A stretch of 59,564 nt of DNA from an uncultured Nitrososphaerota archaeon (GTDB taxonomy: Archaea; Asgardarchaeota; Njordarchaeia; Njordarchaeales; Njordarchaeaceae). Position numbers and translations under genes: made by a program. Within the stretch, counting starts at the first letter, position 1. Each line of letters begins with the position of its first letter. The notes under the pieces are model-generated. The model was not told the origin of the DNA, searched no databases, and worked only from the letters and a program-made list of their open reading frames with translations. This document shows positions 1,778-8,614 of the stretch, piece by piece. The stretch lies in contig CAZFGR010000012.1 of the NCBI GenBank assembly GCA_964518475.1, positions 1 to 59,564 on the forward strand, written 5' to 3'.

Positions 1778-2746
1778 TTGATTCCTATGAACAAGAGATT
1801 ACTAGCACTAGTTACAGTAATTATCCTCTTGTGGAGTACACAGGTAGCTATCATTTCGTCACAACCCCTGTGGGATTGGAAAGAATCCAAAGGAACTGTG
1901 GGCAATGTCGAAGTAATTATTCAACAACATTCGCCAATTTACATCATAAAGTATGCTAATGTTAGAGACTACGGATATTCAGTGATTCTAAAGCGCCTCA
2001 TTGAATATATCGATATGAATGGAAACAAGATATATGACTCTGGCGATGATATTCTCGCCCAAGCGCCGCTTGTAAGCAAGATTACATGGAACATAATTGT
2101 GAAAAACATAACAATTGGAAATACTTCTGGATTAGTTATCACCCTAGAAGGCTCACCTCTCGTTACTGGACGTCATCAAAGAGGCCCCCCAAGAACAGCC
2201 CACGTGGTCATTACTAGCTATTTAATAAAGGATACGGGTAAAATAAACGGTTATTTCATCAATGGAACTAACGAGATTAAAGTGGATATTCAGATAGAGA
2301 GATGGCCATGGTCTTCCACTAAAAGCTATCTAGCGCTAGAAATTGAGGTTACTTGTGAGAACAAAAAGGTAAAAACAAAACATATGCAGGGGATCGGTTC
2401 GAGAAATGGGGAAAAGGCCCATAAACTTACTGTAGAAGCCAGTGGTGTTCCCTATAATTTAACTTTATGGGTTAACACCGATGTTTTAGTTAATGGTGAG
2501 AAAAAGGATATCCTAGGAACAAGCATTCTCGGTAATGTTCTTTACGTATCATATCCTCGTTTCGAAGAAAATATTATACACGATCCAATAATAAGCTTGT
2601 CAAAATTGCGGGAAACCTTCTACCGATTTGTTCCAAGCGAGTTTCGTGTTCTAACATACTACCTTGCTTTAGCCGTCTTCTGTGGAATCTTGGTCATTTA
2701 CGGTATCAGGAGGAAGATGAGAAAATACACTCAAGCATATTCTTGA
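1778..2746 (+). CDS. Secreted surface protein with a C-terminal membrane anchor
   Basis: Signal peptide, beta-rich body with N-x-T/S sites, IIHDP motif, then a C-terminal TM helix and basic tail. Start may be ATG 1787. Confidence 0.75.
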   Translation: MIPMNKRLLALVTVIILLWSTQVAIISSQPLWDWKESKGTVGNVEVIIQQHSPIYIIKYANVRDYGYSVILKRLIEYIDMNGNKIYDSGDDILAQAPLVSKITWNIIVKNITIGNTSGLVITLEGSPLVTGRHQRGPPRTAHVVITSYLIKDTGKINGYFINGTNEIKVDIQIERWPWSSTKSYLALEIEVTCENKKVKTKHMQGIGSRNGEKAHKLTVEASGVPYNLTLWVNTDVLVNGEKKDILGTSILGNVLYVSYPRFEENIIHDPIISLSKLRETFYRFVPSEFRVLTYYLALAVFCGILVIYGIRRKMRKYTQAYS

Positions 2747-2823
2747 TTGAGTCTCTTCTAGGATATAGTAGCACTTTTTAAGCCATTTTTGCTTATTTAA
2801 CCAAAAAGTTTGTTCCTGGGATA

Positions 2824-3903
2824 TTGATGAAAGAGGATATTCTGAAAAACCTTAGGGAATTTCTGTATAATTTAGTAGCTATAGAAACTCCGTCAGGCAG
2901 TGAGTCTCCTGGAATAAAATACCTGAAGGAAATTCTCGAGGAGATGGGCTTATCCAATATAGTTACGCAGTTTGTATCCGAAGACTCCCTCAATCTGATA
3001 GTTAATCCAGTAAAGTCTCCCGATTTAGTAATCATGACGCATATCGATACGATTCCTCCAATAGCTTCTGCTAGGATCATTGATGAGTACACTATCGCTG
3101 GAACTGGTTCTGTAGATGCTAAAGGGGGCATAGCTGCTCTCTATTATGCCTTAATGAAGAATCCAGAGGTGCCTTCTAACGTCTCTATCGTCATTGTATC
3201 GAATGAGGAAAACACAGGTATGGGATGCGTCAAGTATTTAGAGGATTATAGTCCTAGACGCGCATTAGTGCTTGAACCTACTAGTCTTAAGTTAGCTTTC
3301 TCCTCCACTGGGTATTTAGAGCTGAAAATTTCTCTACTGGGGGAGAGAAGACATCCCGATTTATTTGTTTTGGTAGATGATTTCGAGAAAAGAGAAGATC
3401 CTATTAGGAGAATGTTTAACTTGCTTAAGGATTTGTCTCAGGAATTATCTAGCTTAGGAATACGTTTCTCGATAACTTATGTTTCGGCGGGAGAAAAGAA
3501 TGAGACATACGCTACTCCTGAAAGATGTGATGTCATAGTGAATATTCCAATTCCGCCTAGTCAGACTGTTGCTCAAATTCTATCCCGTGTAGCAAGTATT
3601 ACAGCAAAATACGATGCGTATTATCGAGTACATGATATATCTAATCCATATATTAATAAAGATGAGGAATTTATGAAGCAATTGAAAGAGGTCTATAGAA
3701 AAGTCTTTGAGCGAGAACCAGAAATTTTTGTTTTTCCAAGCTGGACTGACGCTACGACCACGGCTGAGAGGGGTATCGGCTCTGCTATATTTGGTCCGGG
3801 AAACCCAGAGTTAGCCCATACTTTAATGGAAAAAATTGATTTGAGAGAAGTAATTAAGGCTGGAGAGTATTTACTTATGCTCCTTAAATCTATGAATCCT
3901 TGA
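2824..3903 (+). CDS. M20 family metallopeptidase/deacylase (ArgE/DapE/LysK-like)
   Basis: THIDT, GSVDAKGG, SNEE, LEPT, WTDA and FGPG...AHT..E motifs. Confidence 0.85.
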   Translation: MMKEDILKNLREFLYNLVAIETPSGSESPGIKYLKEILEEMGLSNIVTQFVSEDSLNLIVNPVKSPDLVIMTHIDTIPPIASARIIDEYTIAGTGSVDAKGGIAALYYALMKNPEVPSNVSIVIVSNEENTGMGCVKYLEDYSPRRALVLEPTSLKLAFSSTGYLELKISLLGERRHPDLFVLVDDFEKREDPIRRMFNLLKDLSQELSSLGIRFSITYVSAGEKNETYATPERCDVIVNIPIPPSQTVAQILSRVASITAKYDAYYRVHDISNPYINKDEEFMKQLKEVYRKVFEREPEIFVFPSWTDATTTAERGIGSAIFGPGNPELAHTLMEKIDLREVIKAGEYLLMLLKSMNP

Positions 3904-4758
3904 TTATTGCTCCTCTAGCATTTTTTTGATGAAATAAGGTAACGCAAAAGAGGATAGATGAATTTCTCTAGTGTAATATACTGTCTCTTTTATTTCCCTT
4001 AATGGTGTTCGCGGATCTATTTTATCCGAAGCCACTATAAAGGACCATAATCCACCAGGATAGAATGGAATAGGTGCTAGATAGAGATAAACGTTGTTGA
4101 AAACTTTTTTCACCGCTCGATACGCTCTTTTAACGACTTCTGGTTGAAAAATAGGTGATCCCGATTGAACAGCAAGAATTCCATCTTTTTGTAATGCTTT
4201 TTTAGCAGCATTAAAGAATCTTTCAGTAATCAATTTTTCCGCTGGTGTGTTGAGGTAGGGATCTGTCCAATCCCCTAATATGATATCGTATGGCTCTCCC
4301 TCATACTCCCCTAAGTATTCTAGTCCATCTTTTATAACTATTCTCGTTTTTTCGTGTGAGAGCGCGCCTTTATCTATTTTTAAAAACTCTTTGCAAGCTT
4401 CTACTACCTTCTCATCGATTTCAACTATTGTGACTTCTCTTACCTCTTTGTGTTTTAAAACCTCTCTCGCAGTGCCCCCATCTCCCCCACCAATAATTAG
4501 GACGCGTCGAGGATTCGGGTGCGAGCACATCGCTACATGGACTAACATTTCAGAGTAGAAGTCCCATTTCTCAGTAATTTGTAATGTGGTGCCACCGTTT
4601 TCTTCAAAGACGAGAACTTTTCCTAAGGGTTCTGTATTTCCTATTATAATAGATTTGAAGAAGTTCGCTGGCTTAATAATCGGTTTTTCTGATGGTTTTA
4701 GTTTTAATAAAATTGAAAAACCTAGTCGGTAATTCTTTTCGCCAATCCACTCACTCAT
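3904..4758 (-). CDS. speE: Polyamine aminopropyltransferase (spermidine synthase family)
   Basis: YSEMLVH, VLIIGGGDGG, VEID, DxTDP and YPGGLW motifs. Confidence 0.92.
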   Translation of the reverse strand: MSEWIGEKNYRLGFSILLKLKPSEKPIIKPANFFKSIIIGNTEPLGKVLVFEENGGTTLQITEKWDFYSEMLVHVAMCSHPNPRRVLIIGGGDGGTAREVLKHKEVREVTIVEIDEKVVEACKEFLKIDKGALSHEKTRIVIKDGLEYLGEYEGEPYDIILGDWTDPYLNTPAEKLITERFFNAAKKALQKDGILAVQSGSPIFQPEVVKRAYRAVKKVFNNVYLYLAPIPFYPGGLWSFIVASDKIDPRTPLREIKETVYYTREIHLSSFALPYFIKKMLEEQ

Positions 4759-4774
4759 TCATTGTCAACCTTCG

Positions 4775-5827
4775 CTAAACACTAGCTGTTTCCTCGTCAT
4801 AGTATATGTCCCCAGTAACGGGATCATTGAATCCTTTAAAGCCTTTTAATGTTTCTATCCTATAGAACGATGATGTGAACCAGTAACCGGTCGGTTTAGC
4901 TTTTAGTGGTGCTAGATCCCATCCCCGCATGGCTTCTATGTAATCCCAATTAACGTATTCGTTGAAATCTCTGACAATATCGGTGATTACAACACCAAAT
5001 TCTGTGGTTAGCATTTTCTGGAATTCTCTCCATTTATCTAGCGATGCATCCACTCGAGTCAGTCCGAAGTAACCGGCGCATTTTTCTCCTCTAAGAGCAG
5101 CTATTCCGCGACCAATGAATAGTTTGAGGGCTGGTAGGGTCTCTGGAGGGTCTGTTTGGAAAGTATCAAATTTCTTTACCAATTCGTCTGGTAAGGGATT
5201 TCTGAGGTCCATAGTATAGACTGCAGCATCAAAACCATATTCCCGAGCAGTTTTTTCGATGAAAGATGTTAATCGCTTATCGATCTCTATAACAGCTATG
5301 TGTCGGGGCCATCCAGTCAATCCCGCAGCTATGCTGACTAAATCGTCGTCTCCCAAGATTATTAATCGTTTCCCTCTTAGATCTCCTCTCTGATCCATGA
5401 AAGCGATTCTAGCGAGTGTGGTTTCGGGATTTACGTATCCCTGATCATATTCTTGAATTGCCTCTGGTCTATTCTTGACAATCTTTAGGAATTCTTCGGT
5501 TACATCGCCTAGATCCCAAGAAACGGTCTTACCCAAGCATGTGGCACATACATGGTCTCCAAACCCAATACCTAGATCCTCTAGTAGCTTCTTTCCCTTA
5601 TTAGTTAAAATTACTTTCTCAGCTTCAAAACTTACGAGACCTTTCTTCTCTAATTCCTTAACTATCCTAGCAACAACGACGAGTGGTTCTCCGCTGTAGC
5701 GAACAAGCATCCAGAAATCGGGTGACTTCTCGAGAGCCATTAGGACTAATTCTACACTCCGAGGATAACAGGGCACTTTTGTTTTCTTTTCCACAATCTC
5801 AGCGATTTCTTTAAAAACCTCCTTCAT
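4775..5827 (-). CDS. bpsA: Branched-chain polyamine synthase (N4-bis(aminopropyl)spermidine synthase)
   Basis: EYDQGYV, LGDDDLVS, FQTDPPET and FNEYVNW motifs after an N-terminal wHTH and CxxC; SD GAGGTG before ATG 5827. Confidence 0.9.
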   Translation of the reverse strand: MKEVFKEIAEIVEKKTKVPCYPRSVELVLMALEKSPDFWMLVRYSGEPLVVVARIVKELEKKGLVSFEAEKVILTNKGKKLLEDLGIGFGDHVCATCLGKTVSWDLGDVTEEFLKIVKNRPEAIQEYDQGYVNPETTLARIAFMDQRGDLRGKRLIILGDDDLVSIAAGLTGWPRHIAVIEIDKRLTSFIEKTAREYGFDAAVYTMDLRNPLPDELVKKFDTFQTDPPETLPALKLFIGRGIAALRGEKCAGYFGLTRVDASLDKWREFQKMLTTEFGVVITDIVRDFNEYVNWDYIEAMRGWDLAPLKAKPTGYWFTSSFYRIETLKGFKGFNDPVTGDIYYDEETASV

Positions 5828-5953
5828 ACAAATTCGCACCTCACTCAAGTGATTAACTCAAAAAATATTGCTACTTTTAATTTTATTACCCAACAATAAC
5901 ATCAACTCTTAGATTTAAAGAGTATCGTAAAAAATGCACAAAAGCACAATAAA

Positions 5954-6787
5954 CTACTTAGTCATCGCAATAAGTACTTCCCTAATTATTGTAGCTGCTA
6001 ATATAGCTGTTATCGATGTATGATCTTTTGGAACAACTTCCACTACATCAACTATTTTAGGTCTTACATTAATTAAAGCCTTAATCAATTGAAGAGGTTC
6101 TAGCCCCAGAGGTTCTGGATTTGCTACCTCGGGTGCGTATGGGGGATCTATAACGTCTATATCCAGAGAAATATAATCAGCACTCTGGAGTTTTTGTTCT
6201 AGGATTCTTGGGTCTTCACGGATTTCCAGGCTAGTGTAGTATTCTACTCCGTATTCCTCTAACTCTCTCATAGCATTTTTTGATACTGATCTCAGTCCTA
6301 CTAGAACAATTTTTTCCCAGCCAATAATCTCCCCAACCCTCCTCAGAACACTCCCATGCGTATATTTTGATCCTAAATAACTGTCCTCGAAATCTGCATG
6401 AGCGTCGAGATGCACATATTTCCTAATTTTTTCAGAGAAAAAAGAAATAATGGGTATTGTGATTGTATGGTCTCCACCAATGAATAAGTATCTCTCAGCG
6501 AATGCTACTTCTTTGAGTGCTCTTTTTATTCTCTGTGTAGTCTCTTCAAAGTTTCCATGCGATGTCTCGATATCTCCCCAATCTGATATCGGTAGTTCTC
6601 TAATGTCTATCCTCTGCATAATGCTATACTCTTCCAGGCTATCCGCCACTATTCTTATGTAGGTAGGAGCGAAGCGACTACCAGTGATATATGTCTGGTT
6701 ACTATCATAAGGAATCCCCAGAACCACCGCCCGGGAGCGTTGGAAGAGGGGAAGGCCGAATAATGGTTTGATGGGATTCAGAAGCAT
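5954..6787 (-). CDS. speB: Agmatinase / agmatine ureohydrolase
   Basis: GGDHT, DAHAD and SLDIDVIDP ureohydrolase motifs; SD AGGAGG upstream; start at 6787 or 6796. Confidence 0.9.
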   Translation of the reverse strand: MLLNPIKPLFGLPLFQRSRAVVLGIPYDSNQTYITGSRFAPTYIRIVADSLEEYSIMQRIDIRELPISDWGDIETSHGNFEETTQRIKRALKEVAFAERYLFIGGDHTITIPIISFFSEKIRKYVHLDAHADFEDSYLGSKYTHGSVLRRVGEIIGWEKIVLVGLRSVSKNAMRELEEYGVEYYTSLEIREDPRILEQKLQSADYISLDIDVIDPPYAPEVANPEPLGLEPLQLIKALINVRPKIVDVVEVVPKDHTSITAILAATIIREVLIAMTK

Positions 6788-7142
6788 CAGAGACATCCTC
6801 CTTATAAGGTTCTCCCCTAACAACTGTCATAGCCACATAATATCTCGGTTTTAGATATTCCAGAATTATATCAAGAGCTTTCTGAGGATCAATACCCCTG
6901 CACGTAAATATATCCAATGCAGCATAACCGAACTCTGGCCATGTATGTATGCTAATATGGGACTCCTTAACAGCTATAACTCCCGTAACTCCATGTGGGG
7001 AAAACTTATGAAATACCTCCCCTATGATTGTTGCTCCAGCTTTTATAGCTGCTTCCATCAAAATTTCTCTCAACCTGTCCAAATCATCCAATAACTTAGG
7101 ATCAACCCCATGAAGTTCAACAATTATGTGTCTTCCTAGCAT
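6705..7142 (-). CDS. speD: Pyruvoyl-dependent S-adenosylmethionine decarboxylase proenzyme (SpeH-type); an arginine decarboxylase paralogue is not excluded
   Basis: GRH, HKFSPHGVT, E|SHISIHTWPE autocleavage motif and DIFTC; ~35-aa low-complexity tail overlapping speB. Confidence 0.9.
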   Translation of the reverse strand: MLGRHIIVELHGVDPKLLDDLDRLREILMEAAIKAGATIIGEVFHKFSPHGVTGVIAVKESHISIHTWPEFGYAALDIFTCRGIDPQKALDIILEYLKPRYYVAMTVVRGEPYKEDVSDASESHQTIIRPSPLPTLPGGGSGDSL

Positions 7143-7457
7143 ATTTACTCACCCCAGGAGGAAATATTTCTAGAGAGGAAAGATGAGGTAAAAGCCGGGG
7201 CGGGTGCTCTAAAGAGTTTGGCTCAGATAAAAAAAGGTCCGTATCCCGGGAGTACGCGGAAAGATCATTACATATACACTGCGAGAAAAAGAAACTCAAC
7301 GGACGCTGAATAGGCCCCCTCCGAACACGCCCCAAGTACTCCAGTAGTGTCCTATCGCGAGATTTCAGAAAGGTCACCAGGAGCCGGGCCCTGCACAATT
7401 TCTCCCCCTCCCCTAAGGAAACGTGCCAGGGAGGGTCGGGCCCGCCCCGGCACGCAT
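7143..7457 (-). promoter_or_regulatory. Structured, uORF-containing 5' leader of the polyamine operon
   Basis: GC-rich island; perfect 11-bp inverted repeat 7441-7451/7194-7204; uORFs at 7457-7413, 7396-7352, 7335-7117 and 7268-7209; anti-SD element at 7182-7192. Confidence 0.6.
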
Positions 7458-7481
7458 AACTTTTATGATACTTACGTTACA

Positions 7482-7498
7482 TATTTAAAGTTATCTTC
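7482..7498 (-). promoter_or_regulatory. BRE/TATA promoter of the speD leader
   Basis: Minus strand GAAGATAAC-TTTAAATA, ending about 25 nt before ATG 7457. Confidence 0.65.
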
Positions 7499-7604: not shown

Positions 7605-7670
7605 AGTCCTATGATGAGCACGCCCTTCACTGATTTAGATAAATGATGAGCTCTACCACTGCTGAGGATT
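7605..7670 (+). ncRNA. Box C/D guide sRNA (predicted targets: tRNA D-loop and 5' domain of 23S rRNA)
   Basis: C ATGATGA 7611, D' CTGA 7630, C' ATGATGA 7643, D CTGA 7662; two 12-nt guides; short terminal stem. Confidence 0.9.
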
Positions 7671-7684
7671 GATAATATCAAACA

Positions 7685-8614
7685 ATGGTGCTTTTCGTGA
7701 ATAAATCAAAAGTTTCTGAATTCGGCAAATTCGTCTATAGAGTAACAGAAAAAATCATTTCTAGAGAAAAGAGCCGTAACAATATTCTCTCAGTAATAAT
7801 TTATGGATCACTCGTTGATGAAGGCTACGTAGAAGGACTTAGCGATATTAATGTATGCATAGTGACAGAGAATCTTGTGAGGGATCTCTACAGCTTAAAG
7901 AGCATCTTAGTATATCGCTTTTGGAACCAATATAAAAGAAAACTTTCCCCAGAAGTCTTTCCATACATTGTTTTTCGAGAATTCTACATCAGAGGAATTC
8001 CTCTTCCAGTAATCGTTGTTAAAAGCGGTTTTCCTATAAAAACAGATTCTGCAATAATCGATCTAAAAAGGAGAGAGTATAGGTGTGGAGACCTTAGCTT
8101 GTATTACTCGTTATGCAGAGCTGTTAGGGAGCTGTCTTTCAGCATATCTTTTTTTCTAAAAAGAGATATAGCGGGGGGCATCCGATTCCTTCAACATTCC
8201 TTGGTACATGCTCTTAGATCAATAATAATAGCTCAAGAAAAAAGAGTACCCTGCACTATCAACGATATTCTTAATCAACTTAAGAAAATGAATAAAGATG
8301 AACTATCTAACCTCCTATCTCTCGTAACAACCATGAAGAAAAATGCCTTCAGACTAGAGAAATCACTTAAAAGAAAACATTTATCGCTGAGAGCTAATAA
8401 TTCAATAATAGTGGCTCTCAAGAAAACGTATAATGTTATTTCATTAGCTTGGAGACTTGTCGGAATAAATCTCGTAAGTTACGAGGAATTAACAAATATT
8501 TTAGACAAAATACAAGCCACAGAAATCGTTATGCGTTGTCATAATAATAACCCAATTCTAGAAGCTTATGATAAAAATTGGCAATATCATCGGATACCTC
8601 TTTTCACCCATTAG
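7685..8614 (+). CDS. Nucleotidyltransferase (MNT-like) domain fused to a helical HEPN-like domain
   Basis: SVIIYGSLVDEGYVEGLSDIN resembles GS..DxD with the second Asp replaced by Asn; helical C-terminal half. Confidence 0.6.
   Translation: MVLFVNKSKVSEFGKFVYRVTEKIISREKSRNNILSVIIYGSLVDEGYVEGLSDINVCIVTENLVRDLYSLKSILVYRFWNQYKRKLSPEVFPYIVFREFYIRGIPLPVIVVKSGFPIKTDSAIIDLKRREYRCGDLSLYYSLCRAVRELSFSISFFLKRDIAGGIRFLQHSLVHALRSIIIAQEKRVPCTINDILNQLKKMNKDELSNLLSLVTTMKKNAFRLEKSLKRKHLSLRANNSIIVALKKTYNVISLAWRLVGINLVSYEELTNILDKIQATEIVMRCHNNNPILEAYDKNWQYHRIPLFTH

Follow-up and report, generated by a model that had tools for sequence, protein, structure and literature searches.

Upstream of speD, on a stretch of DNA of 59,564 nucleotides that is called the window here, we find what is probably a clade-restricted form of gene control in an Asgard archaeon, exerted through a leader ORF and its 5'UTR. 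The explanation that we favour, with moderate confidence, is that this leader ORF is gated by RNA structure, translationally linked to the downstream gene and probably responsive to polyamines, and that it is part of a portable cis-regulatory cassette. The underlying layout, which consists of a TATA promoter, a GC-rich 5' leader of ~80 nt and an ORF, is conserved in 11 distinct leaders from one genus-level clade of the Njordarchaeota (Asgard). It has to be kept in mind that these sequences are contigs of MAGs or metagenomes from this single clade and that the 11 leaders are not independent of each other.

The polyamine operon and its promoter

On the minus strand of the window, speD is followed by an agmatinase-like gene and by bpsA, and the protein domains encoded by these genes mark them as a polyamine operon. 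The features of the operon and its promoter are the following:

6705-7142, minus strand: speD (S-adenosylmethionine decarboxylase; Pfam AdoMet_dc, 4.3e-39), gene 1 of the operon
5954-6823, minus strand: agmatinase-like gene (Pfam Arginase, 2.9e-58), gene 2 of the operon
4775-5848, minus strand: bpsA (Pfam BpsA_C, 3.1e-102), gene 3 of the operon
7481-7489, minus strand: TATA-like box TTTAAATAT

The TATA-like box is immediately preceded by a purine-rich stretch and is found at the same position in every leader with upstream sequence. From the usual spacing between TATA box and start site in archaea, we infer that the transcript starts near 7460-7455. The region that follows stands out by its composition, as positions 7300-7450 form an island of 59-64% GC in a genome of about 37% GC. 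Past the AdoMet_dc domain, the frame of speD continues for ~35 residues and reaches into the listed agmatinase-like ORF, whose start is given as TTG at 6823 (overlap 6705-6823, minus strand).

On the strand opposite to the speD leader, positions 7607-7668 (plus strand) hold an element that resembles a C/D-box sRNA and has the boxes C, D', C' and D. In Rfam it comes closest to snoPyro_CD, with a score of 30.8 bits that is below the threshold of 45, and the same element is also kept upstream of the leader in the G002-type relative (leader L005). The element adjoins a divergent ORF of 309 aa (7685-8614, plus strand) that has no Pfam match.

The nearest public relatives of SpeD are encoded by MAGs titled Candidatus Njordarchaeota or Promethearchaeati (Asgard archaea), and the DNA runs that contain the window stretch are sediment and hydrothermal-vent metagenomes, whereas no RNA run was listed for it. 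DNA contigs over the locus represent only a G002-like variant and fragments identical to the window. Of the 7 genomes of the genus, 6 have the leader immediately 5' of speD, as do 3 metagenome contigs, and a profile of the peptide encoded by the leader ORF is matched in 5 of the 7 genomes. Three more such peptides were found in public assemblies, each encoded directly 5' of an AdoMet_dc gene. The GC-rich element is present upstream of speD in four further relatives as well, and in these a single frame is open from a conserved AUG UGC (corresponding to the TTG at 7398 in the window) to the start of speD.

Searches beyond the genus gave a narrow distribution. In the other three families of the order, speD has a short leader and no such ORF was found. 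A covariance model of the leader (R1), searched across the order, matched only the speD leaders of this genus and one spurious intragenic site in G004. A pattern scan of genome contigs with the GC-rich arm was swamped by high-GC bacteria and gave nothing new, and when metagenomes were scanned with the peptide profile, all sequences obtained were already part of the set. One candidate from the search of representative proteins, P0007, was discarded because it is an unrelated repeat protein that matches the GP.QR stretch only.

The leader ORF is under selection

The ORF that occupies most of the leader, and the elements within and around it, are the following:

7117-7398, minus strand: leader ORF of 93 codons with a TTG start and a TGA stop, overlapping the start of speD by 26 nt
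7402-7413, minus strand: G-rich Shine-Dalgarno sequence of the leader ORF, GGGGAGGGGGAG, 3 nt upstream of the start codon
7297-7398, minus strand: conserved part of the peptide, codons 1-34, MC[RK]VPLQ ... [ND]RTLLEY[LF] ... [RK][RS]GP.QR, with a coding signature
7120-7296, minus strand: unconserved, stop-free spacer that cannot be aligned between relatives
7148-7155, minus strand: Shine-Dalgarno sequence of speD, GGGGUGAG, within the 3' end of the leader ORF

Homologous ORFs, identified by HMM searches, have 65-101 codons in the 11 leaders and start with ATG or TTG only. The Shine-Dalgarno sequence is conserved in all 11 leaders, where the start codon follows a GGGGAG-type tract at a distance of 2-4 nt, and it is complementary to the 3' end of the 16S rRNA, which reads GAUCACCUCC in two genomes of the genus. 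Start codon and Shine-Dalgarno sequence are thus both conserved among the relatives, as would be expected of a regulatory leader ORF.

Three lines of evidence suggest that the frame itself is maintained by selection, apparently for translation. Firstly, in the distal part (codon 37 to the stop) of 8 leaders with 338 codons altogether, there are 0 stops in frame 0 compared to 25 and 29 in the other frames, the chance of this part staying open being 0.05-0.11 per sequence. Secondly, a pair of +1 and -1 indels, 10 nt apart (7369/7379), between the window and its nearest relative (G002-type) restores the frame. Thirdly, pairwise dN/dS values in the conserved part (codons 2-35) are 0.19-0.46, dS being saturated in the distal part. 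In codons 16-34, the variable sites are distributed 10/7/18 over the three codon positions.

The ORF also ends at a characteristic place. In 9 speD leaders its stop lies between -14 and +26 nt from the AUG of speD, at or over the ribosome-binding site of this gene, and the cases include AUGnUAG-type overlaps (L007 and L008). A strong Shine-Dalgarno sequence precedes the speD AUG by 3-5 nt in every leader. In L006, L216 and L219, the leader ORF is in the frame of speD and parted from it by a single UGA and 1-2 codons; the frames differ in the other leaders. Fusion of the ORF with speD by readthrough or frameshifting was dropped as an explanation, because the frame offset between ORF and speD varies (0, 1 or 2) among the leaders.

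These observations bear on the idea of an independent gene for a small non-coding RNA at 7455-7300, with speD as a chance neighbour downstream, which we consider extremely unlikely. The GC island, the TATA box of its own and a T5 tract after the conserved part could be read in this way. However, the coding signature, the conserved start codon and a frame without a stop over another 31-67 codons until the next gene is reached would not be expected of such an RNA. Moreover, there is no Rfam match, and the T-tract is not conserved.

The 5'UTR and the head of the ORF may form two alternative structures

The initial annotation had paired an arm near the 5' end of the transcript (7451-7441, GCCGGGGCGGG) with a partner at a distance of about 235 nt. 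The conserved partners of this arm proved to be much closer, at distances of 10-70 nt, within the ~80-nt GC-rich 5' leader (7455-7378), where the arm can pair either within a local hairpin, P1, or with the leader ORF at its codons 2-6:

7421-7455, minus strand: hairpin P1, with the 5' arm GUGCCGGGG-C-GGG paired to CCC-U-CCCUGGCAC; it contains 7451-7441 and a CCUCC-like tract, C1 (7435-7428)
7378-7395, minus strand: codons 2-6 of the leader ORF, with tract C2, GGGCCCGGCUCC, at 7391-7380; can pair alternatively with the 5' arm (10-13 bp) or with the Shine-Dalgarno tract

When sequences were folded singly, P1 was present in the minimum free energy structure of 6 out of 8 leaders, with 11-13 bp between the arm and C1, a bulged C, and additional pairing of the leader-ORF Shine-Dalgarno sequence with C2. 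RNAalifold predicted instead an 11-bp helix of GGUCCCGCUCC (codons 2-6, C2) with the 5' arm GGGGCGGGGCC, which encloses the pairing of the CCUCCCC tract (C1) with the Shine-Dalgarno sequence of the leader ORF as well as a covarying inner hairpin. There are thus two arrangements, one with arm:C1 and SD:C2 and one with arm:C2 and C1:SD. Upon constrained folding at 37-80 C, their free energies differed by between about -3 and +6 kcal/mol in 8 out of 9 leaders, the outlier being L005 with +9.6 at 37 C. The G-rich Shine-Dalgarno sequence (7413-7402) is paired in both predicted folds.

Sequence changes among the leaders are consistent with these pairings. Throughout codons 1-8, all three codon positions are conserved, and a U-A pair of P1 in the window and L005 is replaced by C-G in the other leaders. 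The most informative case is G005 of the same genus, which has the same 5'UTR followed by a 65-codon ORF that ends 5 nt before speD. Here the arm is changed to GGGGCGGCCCC and codons 2-5 to GGGGUCGCUCU, so that both strands are changed and the helix is kept. The C2 tract of G005 pairs with its own arm at -18.5 kcal/mol, compared to -9.5 with the consensus arm, and the G005 arm pairs with its own C1 at -28.5, compared to -18.6 with the consensus C1. In cross-compatibility matrices, native arm:C1 and arm:C2 combinations were favoured over swapped ones, which suggests that the arm co-varies with both partners, in 2-3 independent lineages and within low-complexity G/C tracts. It should be added that the covariation stems mainly from two lineages, namely window/L005 and G005, and that the G- and C-runs permit many other pairings, which makes the helix assignments soft. 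The four G4 tracts might, in addition, form a G-quadruplex. Compared to shuffled sequences, the 88-103-nt leader was more stable in 7 out of 8 leaders (z-scores of -2.1 to -3.8), the window's own leader having a z-score of only -1.04. By sequence conservation and predicted folding, the 5' arm is real and looks functional, with conserved partners at 7435-7421 and 7391-7380.

A riboswitch aptamer of a new class in the GC-rich 5'UTR, which would gate the leader ORF by specific recognition of SAM, dcSAM or a polyamine rather than through general helix stability, is in our opinion improbable. The two alternative conformations with matched changes, the conserved bulged C, the conserved loop and junction sequences and the presence of the element in two operon contexts would be compatible with such a device. 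However, the helices are mostly G/C runs with few conserved unpaired nucleotides of the kind that would line a ligand pocket, the element is confined to one genus, and the Shine-Dalgarno sequence is freed in neither predicted fold. A SAM, dcSAM or polyamine riboswitch had already been raised as an option in the initial annotation, and the Rfam search of the leader did not bear it out, as no family scored above its threshold. Even at E ≤ 1 there was no Rfam match within 7143-7460, and in four homologous leaders the only matches were antisense ones to ctRNA_pGA1, with 35.1 and 28.9 bits at a threshold of 45. Known structured RNAs, such as SRP RNA, RNase P RNA or a riboswitch, were rejected on the same grounds. 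Likewise, a tRNA was rejected since ARAGORN finds none in the window, and a MITE or repeat with terminal inverted repeats was rejected since the element is present in a single copy in its own genome, G000, according to BLAST and the covariance model.

The long-range helix is specific for the window

The long-range helix proposed at the outset does exist as a complementarity. All 11 pairs between 7451-7441 and 7204-7194 (CCCGCCCCGGC) are perfect, and every base cited for them was confirmed by reading the sequence. As a duplex, the helix reaches -29.6 kcal/mol compared to -21.2 ± 2.8 for dinucleotide shuffles, only 4 out of 500 of which were as good, and it is therefore stronger than expected by chance. 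It is also found in both the minimum free energy and the centroid fold of 7185-7460. The fold of these 276 nt as a whole has a z-score of 0.02 against dinucleotide shuffles and is thus not extra stable.

The helix is not shared by the relatives. No partner for the 5' arm was found in the distal leader of any of 7 homologous speD leaders, for which 55 to 500 out of 500 shuffles were as good, and the closest relative was among the worst in this respect (496 out of 500 shuffles did better). The 3' arm (7204-7194) is located within the fast-evolving, unalignable part of the leader ORF. G002 of the same genus (leader L005) matches only 7511-7298, with 87% identity, beyond about 7298 it can no longer be aligned, and the 3' arm is missing even in this closest relative. 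The 11-bp helix is consequently a complementarity specific for the window, most likely due to chance and otherwise no more than an addition private to this sequence.

A second stem had been described between 7192-7182 (UUUACCUCAUC) and 7153-7144 (GGUGAGUAAA), just 5' of speD, as an anti-Shine-Dalgarno element. Although this pairing with its one bulge and one G-U can indeed be drawn, its stability is at chance level, the local minimum free energy being -9.1 kcal/mol with a z-score of 0.16, and 106 out of 200 shuffles folding as well. The hairpin does not recur in the homologous leaders either. Nor is the Shine-Dalgarno sequence of speD sequestered, as had been assumed. In none of eight leaders did its pairing exceed that obtained with a shuffled sequence upstream, and in 4 of these 8 it is more open than with all 40 upstream shuffles.

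The remaining parts of the proposal concern features that are largely private to the window. The upstream frame called uORF1 (GTG at 7453) is present only in the window and its closest relative L005 and is not conserved, and an AUG at 7457 is likewise confined to these two. The HPPR and FPPG motifs, regarded as ribosome pause sites, are window-specific and located in the unconserved part. T5 and T7 tracts, which had been likened to archaeal terminators, do occur, but among the homologous leaders their positions differ or the tract is absent, 3 out of 9 leaders having none at all. Among these 9 leaders we found no T-tract of at least 5 that is conserved in position, as would be needed for an intrinsic oligo-T terminator or attenuator of archaea. 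The lengths of oligo-T runs fit the base composition, with a P of about 0.06 for the longest T-run.

Taken together, the switch as proposed, in which ribosomes on uORF1 would melt the long helix, or ribosomes paused at HPPR/FPPG would cover the anti-SD stem, with the U-tracts serving as attenuating terminators, is very improbable. What speaks for it is the perfect complementarity that few shuffles equal, the occurrence of the helix in the 276-nt minimum free energy and centroid folds, and the ability of the window's 3' arm to pair also with the speD Shine-Dalgarno region in a minimum free energy structure. Against this, the helix recurs in 0 of 7 homologs with its 3' arm in unalignable sequence, the anti-SD hairpin of the window is at chance level, as is the sequestration of the Shine-Dalgarno sequence in every lineage, conservation is lacking for uORF1, for the PP motifs and for the T-tracts, and a single hit with a P of about 0.008 among 8 sequences is unremarkable. 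The more general part of the annotation was sound: the speD leader is long and structured, has an upstream ORF, and contains mutually exclusive helices that make use of the 5' arm. It was the particulars, namely partner, uORF1, Shine-Dalgarno sequence and U-tracts, that did not hold. A striking perfect helix may thus be private to one sequence while the real structure adjoins it, which calls for caution.

The cassette also precedes an ABC importer operon

When 1.8 billion representative proteins were searched exhaustively with the profile, two further members were obtained, P0005 and P0006. Both have the same promoter layout, 5'UTR and N-terminal peptide, and both are located upstream of an ABC importer operon instead of speD. 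This operon encodes a PotA/CysA/MalK-type ATPase, an SBP_bac_8 binding protein, a fused ThiP/PhnU-like permease and a deacylase of the ArgE/DapE family. In L237 (JGI 3300014887 contig Ga0180302_10003900), the importer operon behind the leader cassette extends over 2400-7246, and it is most similar, though only weakly, to transporter families for thiamine, 2-aminoethylphosphonate and polyamines. The two ABC-linked copies have 5'UTR identities of 79-96%.

The ABC-linked leader L236 and the speD-linked leader L218, which is identical to L216, come from the same assembly. Their identity is 80% in the promoter, 96% in the 5'UTR, 78% in codons 1-35 and 55% beyond codon 35. In one ABC leader the ORF stops at -10, as in the speD leaders at or over the downstream ribosome-binding site; the exception is L236, in which it stops 47 nt before the next start. 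Since promoter, 5'UTR and the head of the ORF are found together at two operons, they appear to behave as a portable cassette, and this favours a cis-regulatory role over that of a protein partner specific for SpeD.

The same finding weighs on the alternative that the leader ORF encodes a trans-acting small protein with an N-terminal module of ~34 residues and a disordered tail, for instance a regulator or partner of polyamine enzymes that is co-translated with the operon. We regard this as rather unlikely. The purifying selection on the peptide, the prediction of the ORF by gene callers in public assemblies, and the two helices predicted for the peptide by AlphaFold2 would all be in agreement with such a protein. 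However, the pLDDT of this model is only 64, which is too weak for a fold search, and the peptide has no Pfam family and no usable match in the ESM Atlas. Further, the C-terminal 31-67 residues are unalignable and resemble translated AT-rich DNA (rich in F, L, S, C, N and I), and codons 1-8 are constrained at the RNA level. In G005 (L222, G005:C4, 2010-2205, minus strand), the RTLLEY...GP.QR motif is largely replaced, whereas the 5'UTR and the open 65-codon ORF are kept. Lastly, it is the promoter and 5'UTR that travel with the ORF to the second operon, which is a better fit for a cis element.

A model for structure-gated leader translation

Under the favoured explanation of a structure-gated leader ORF, the TATA promoter would start the mRNA a few nt before the GC-rich segment. 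The two G-tracts (arm and leader-ORF Shine-Dalgarno sequence) and the two C-tracts (C1 and codons 2-6) would then pair in two nearly isoenergetic ways, and, the ribosome-binding site of the leader ORF being masked in either fold, initiation would be set by the stability of the structure. Ribosomes that do initiate would make the N-terminal peptide of 34 residues, cross the fast-evolving stop-free spacer and terminate on or beside the ribosome-binding site of the first structural gene. Translation of the leader ORF would in this way set that of the downstream gene, by re-initiation or by occlusion. Polyamines stabilise GC helices, and polyamine status might act through such stabilisation, through the nascent peptide, or through both. 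Polyamine status is probably the signal because the cassette is shared by an operon for polyamine synthesis and one for an ABC importer. The effect might go in either direction, as speD has a strong and open Shine-Dalgarno sequence of its own.

Some observations are not easily accommodated by this explanation. The strong and apparently accessible Shine-Dalgarno sequence might permit translation of speD independently of the leader ORF, G005 keeps the ORF but largely loses the peptide motif, and in L236 the ORF stops well before the next start. G005 could in fact serve as a natural test of whether the sequence of the leader peptide matters.

The conserved RTLLEY...GP.QR motif is located 31-67 codons before the stop, far from the site of termination. 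As the distal spacer is at least about as long as the exit tunnel, the N-terminal module would already be outside the ribosome when the stop is reached, which we offer as a lead only. A more far-reaching version, which we hold to be less likely than not, is a polyamine-sensing leader regulon, in which the bistable 5'UTR and the nascent peptide (by arrest in the tunnel, or through the emerged N-terminal module at the stop) control how ribosomes are delivered to speD and to the genes of an amine importer. Archaea would then have evolved, independently, a counterpart to the SAMDC uORF of eukaryotes and to bacterial SpeFL.

Comparison with known systems

Eukaryotic AdoMetDC (AMD1/SAMDC) mRNAs have uORFs of 6 or about 50 codons, such as the one for the mammalian MAGDIS peptide and the conserved-peptide uORFs of plant SAMDC. 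For the eukaryotic AdoMetDC uORF, Law et al. 2001 is cited in PMC10117724. The archaeal leader shares with these a conserved-peptide upstream ORF before the same enzyme and a plausible feedback of polyamines on translation. However, there is no sequence similarity, the archaeal ORF is far longer (65-101 codons), its conserved part is N-terminal and not at the stop, and it ends at the main Shine-Dalgarno sequence in a coupling of the prokaryotic type. Its confinement to one archaeal genus suggests that its origin was probably independent of the eukaryotic uORFs.

Arrest-peptide leader ORFs are known from bacteria, for example SecM upstream of secA and SpeFL upstream of speF in the ornithine/putrescine pathway. 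The arrest motif of SecM is ...WI....GIRAGP, and the [RK][RS]GP that follows a hydrophobic/aromatic cluster in the archaeal peptide may bear a loose likeness to it. As in the bacterial cases (for the speF leader, see PMC6386406), a leader ORF is located upstream of a gene, in the case of SpeFL also one for polyamines, alternative mRNA structures can form, and the ORF ends beside the downstream ribosome-binding site. Unlike in these cases, the archaeal motif is not at a site of arrest or termination, and there is no logic that involves Rho or an attenuator.

Termination-reinitiation coupling is known for overlapping gene pairs of prokaryotes, including archaea. The position of the leader-ORF stop relative to the downstream AUG, including the AUGnUAG-type overlaps, resembles such pairs, whereas the upstream partner is here not a conserved protein gene but an ORF in whose distal half only the absence of stops is under selection. 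With RNA thermometers and small pseudoknot riboswitches such as SAM-II, SAM-V and SAM/SAH, which are 5'UTR switches that sequester a Shine-Dalgarno sequence, the leader shares a short 5'UTR in which a CCUCC-like tract masks a Shine-Dalgarno sequence and can be paired alternatively. It differs from switches of this kind by the lack of an Rfam match, by the pairing of the Shine-Dalgarno sequence in both folds, and by the fact that the unit under control would be a leader ORF and not the enzyme gene directly.

Regulatory leader peptides and translational attenuators are textbook knowledge for bacteria, as is the control by AdoMetDC uORFs for eukaryotes. To our knowledge, almost nothing comparable has been characterised in archaea. 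Full-text searches of the literature brought up no description of a leader or upstream ORF for speD in archaea, and a study on Haloferax described many new sORFs in 5'UTRs that abut the downstream gene and compared them with leader peptides (PMC10117724). If borne out, the conserved and portable cassette in front of two operons would offer a tangible system, readily accessible to mutation, in which to study translational feedback in archaea, and this in an Asgard lineage.
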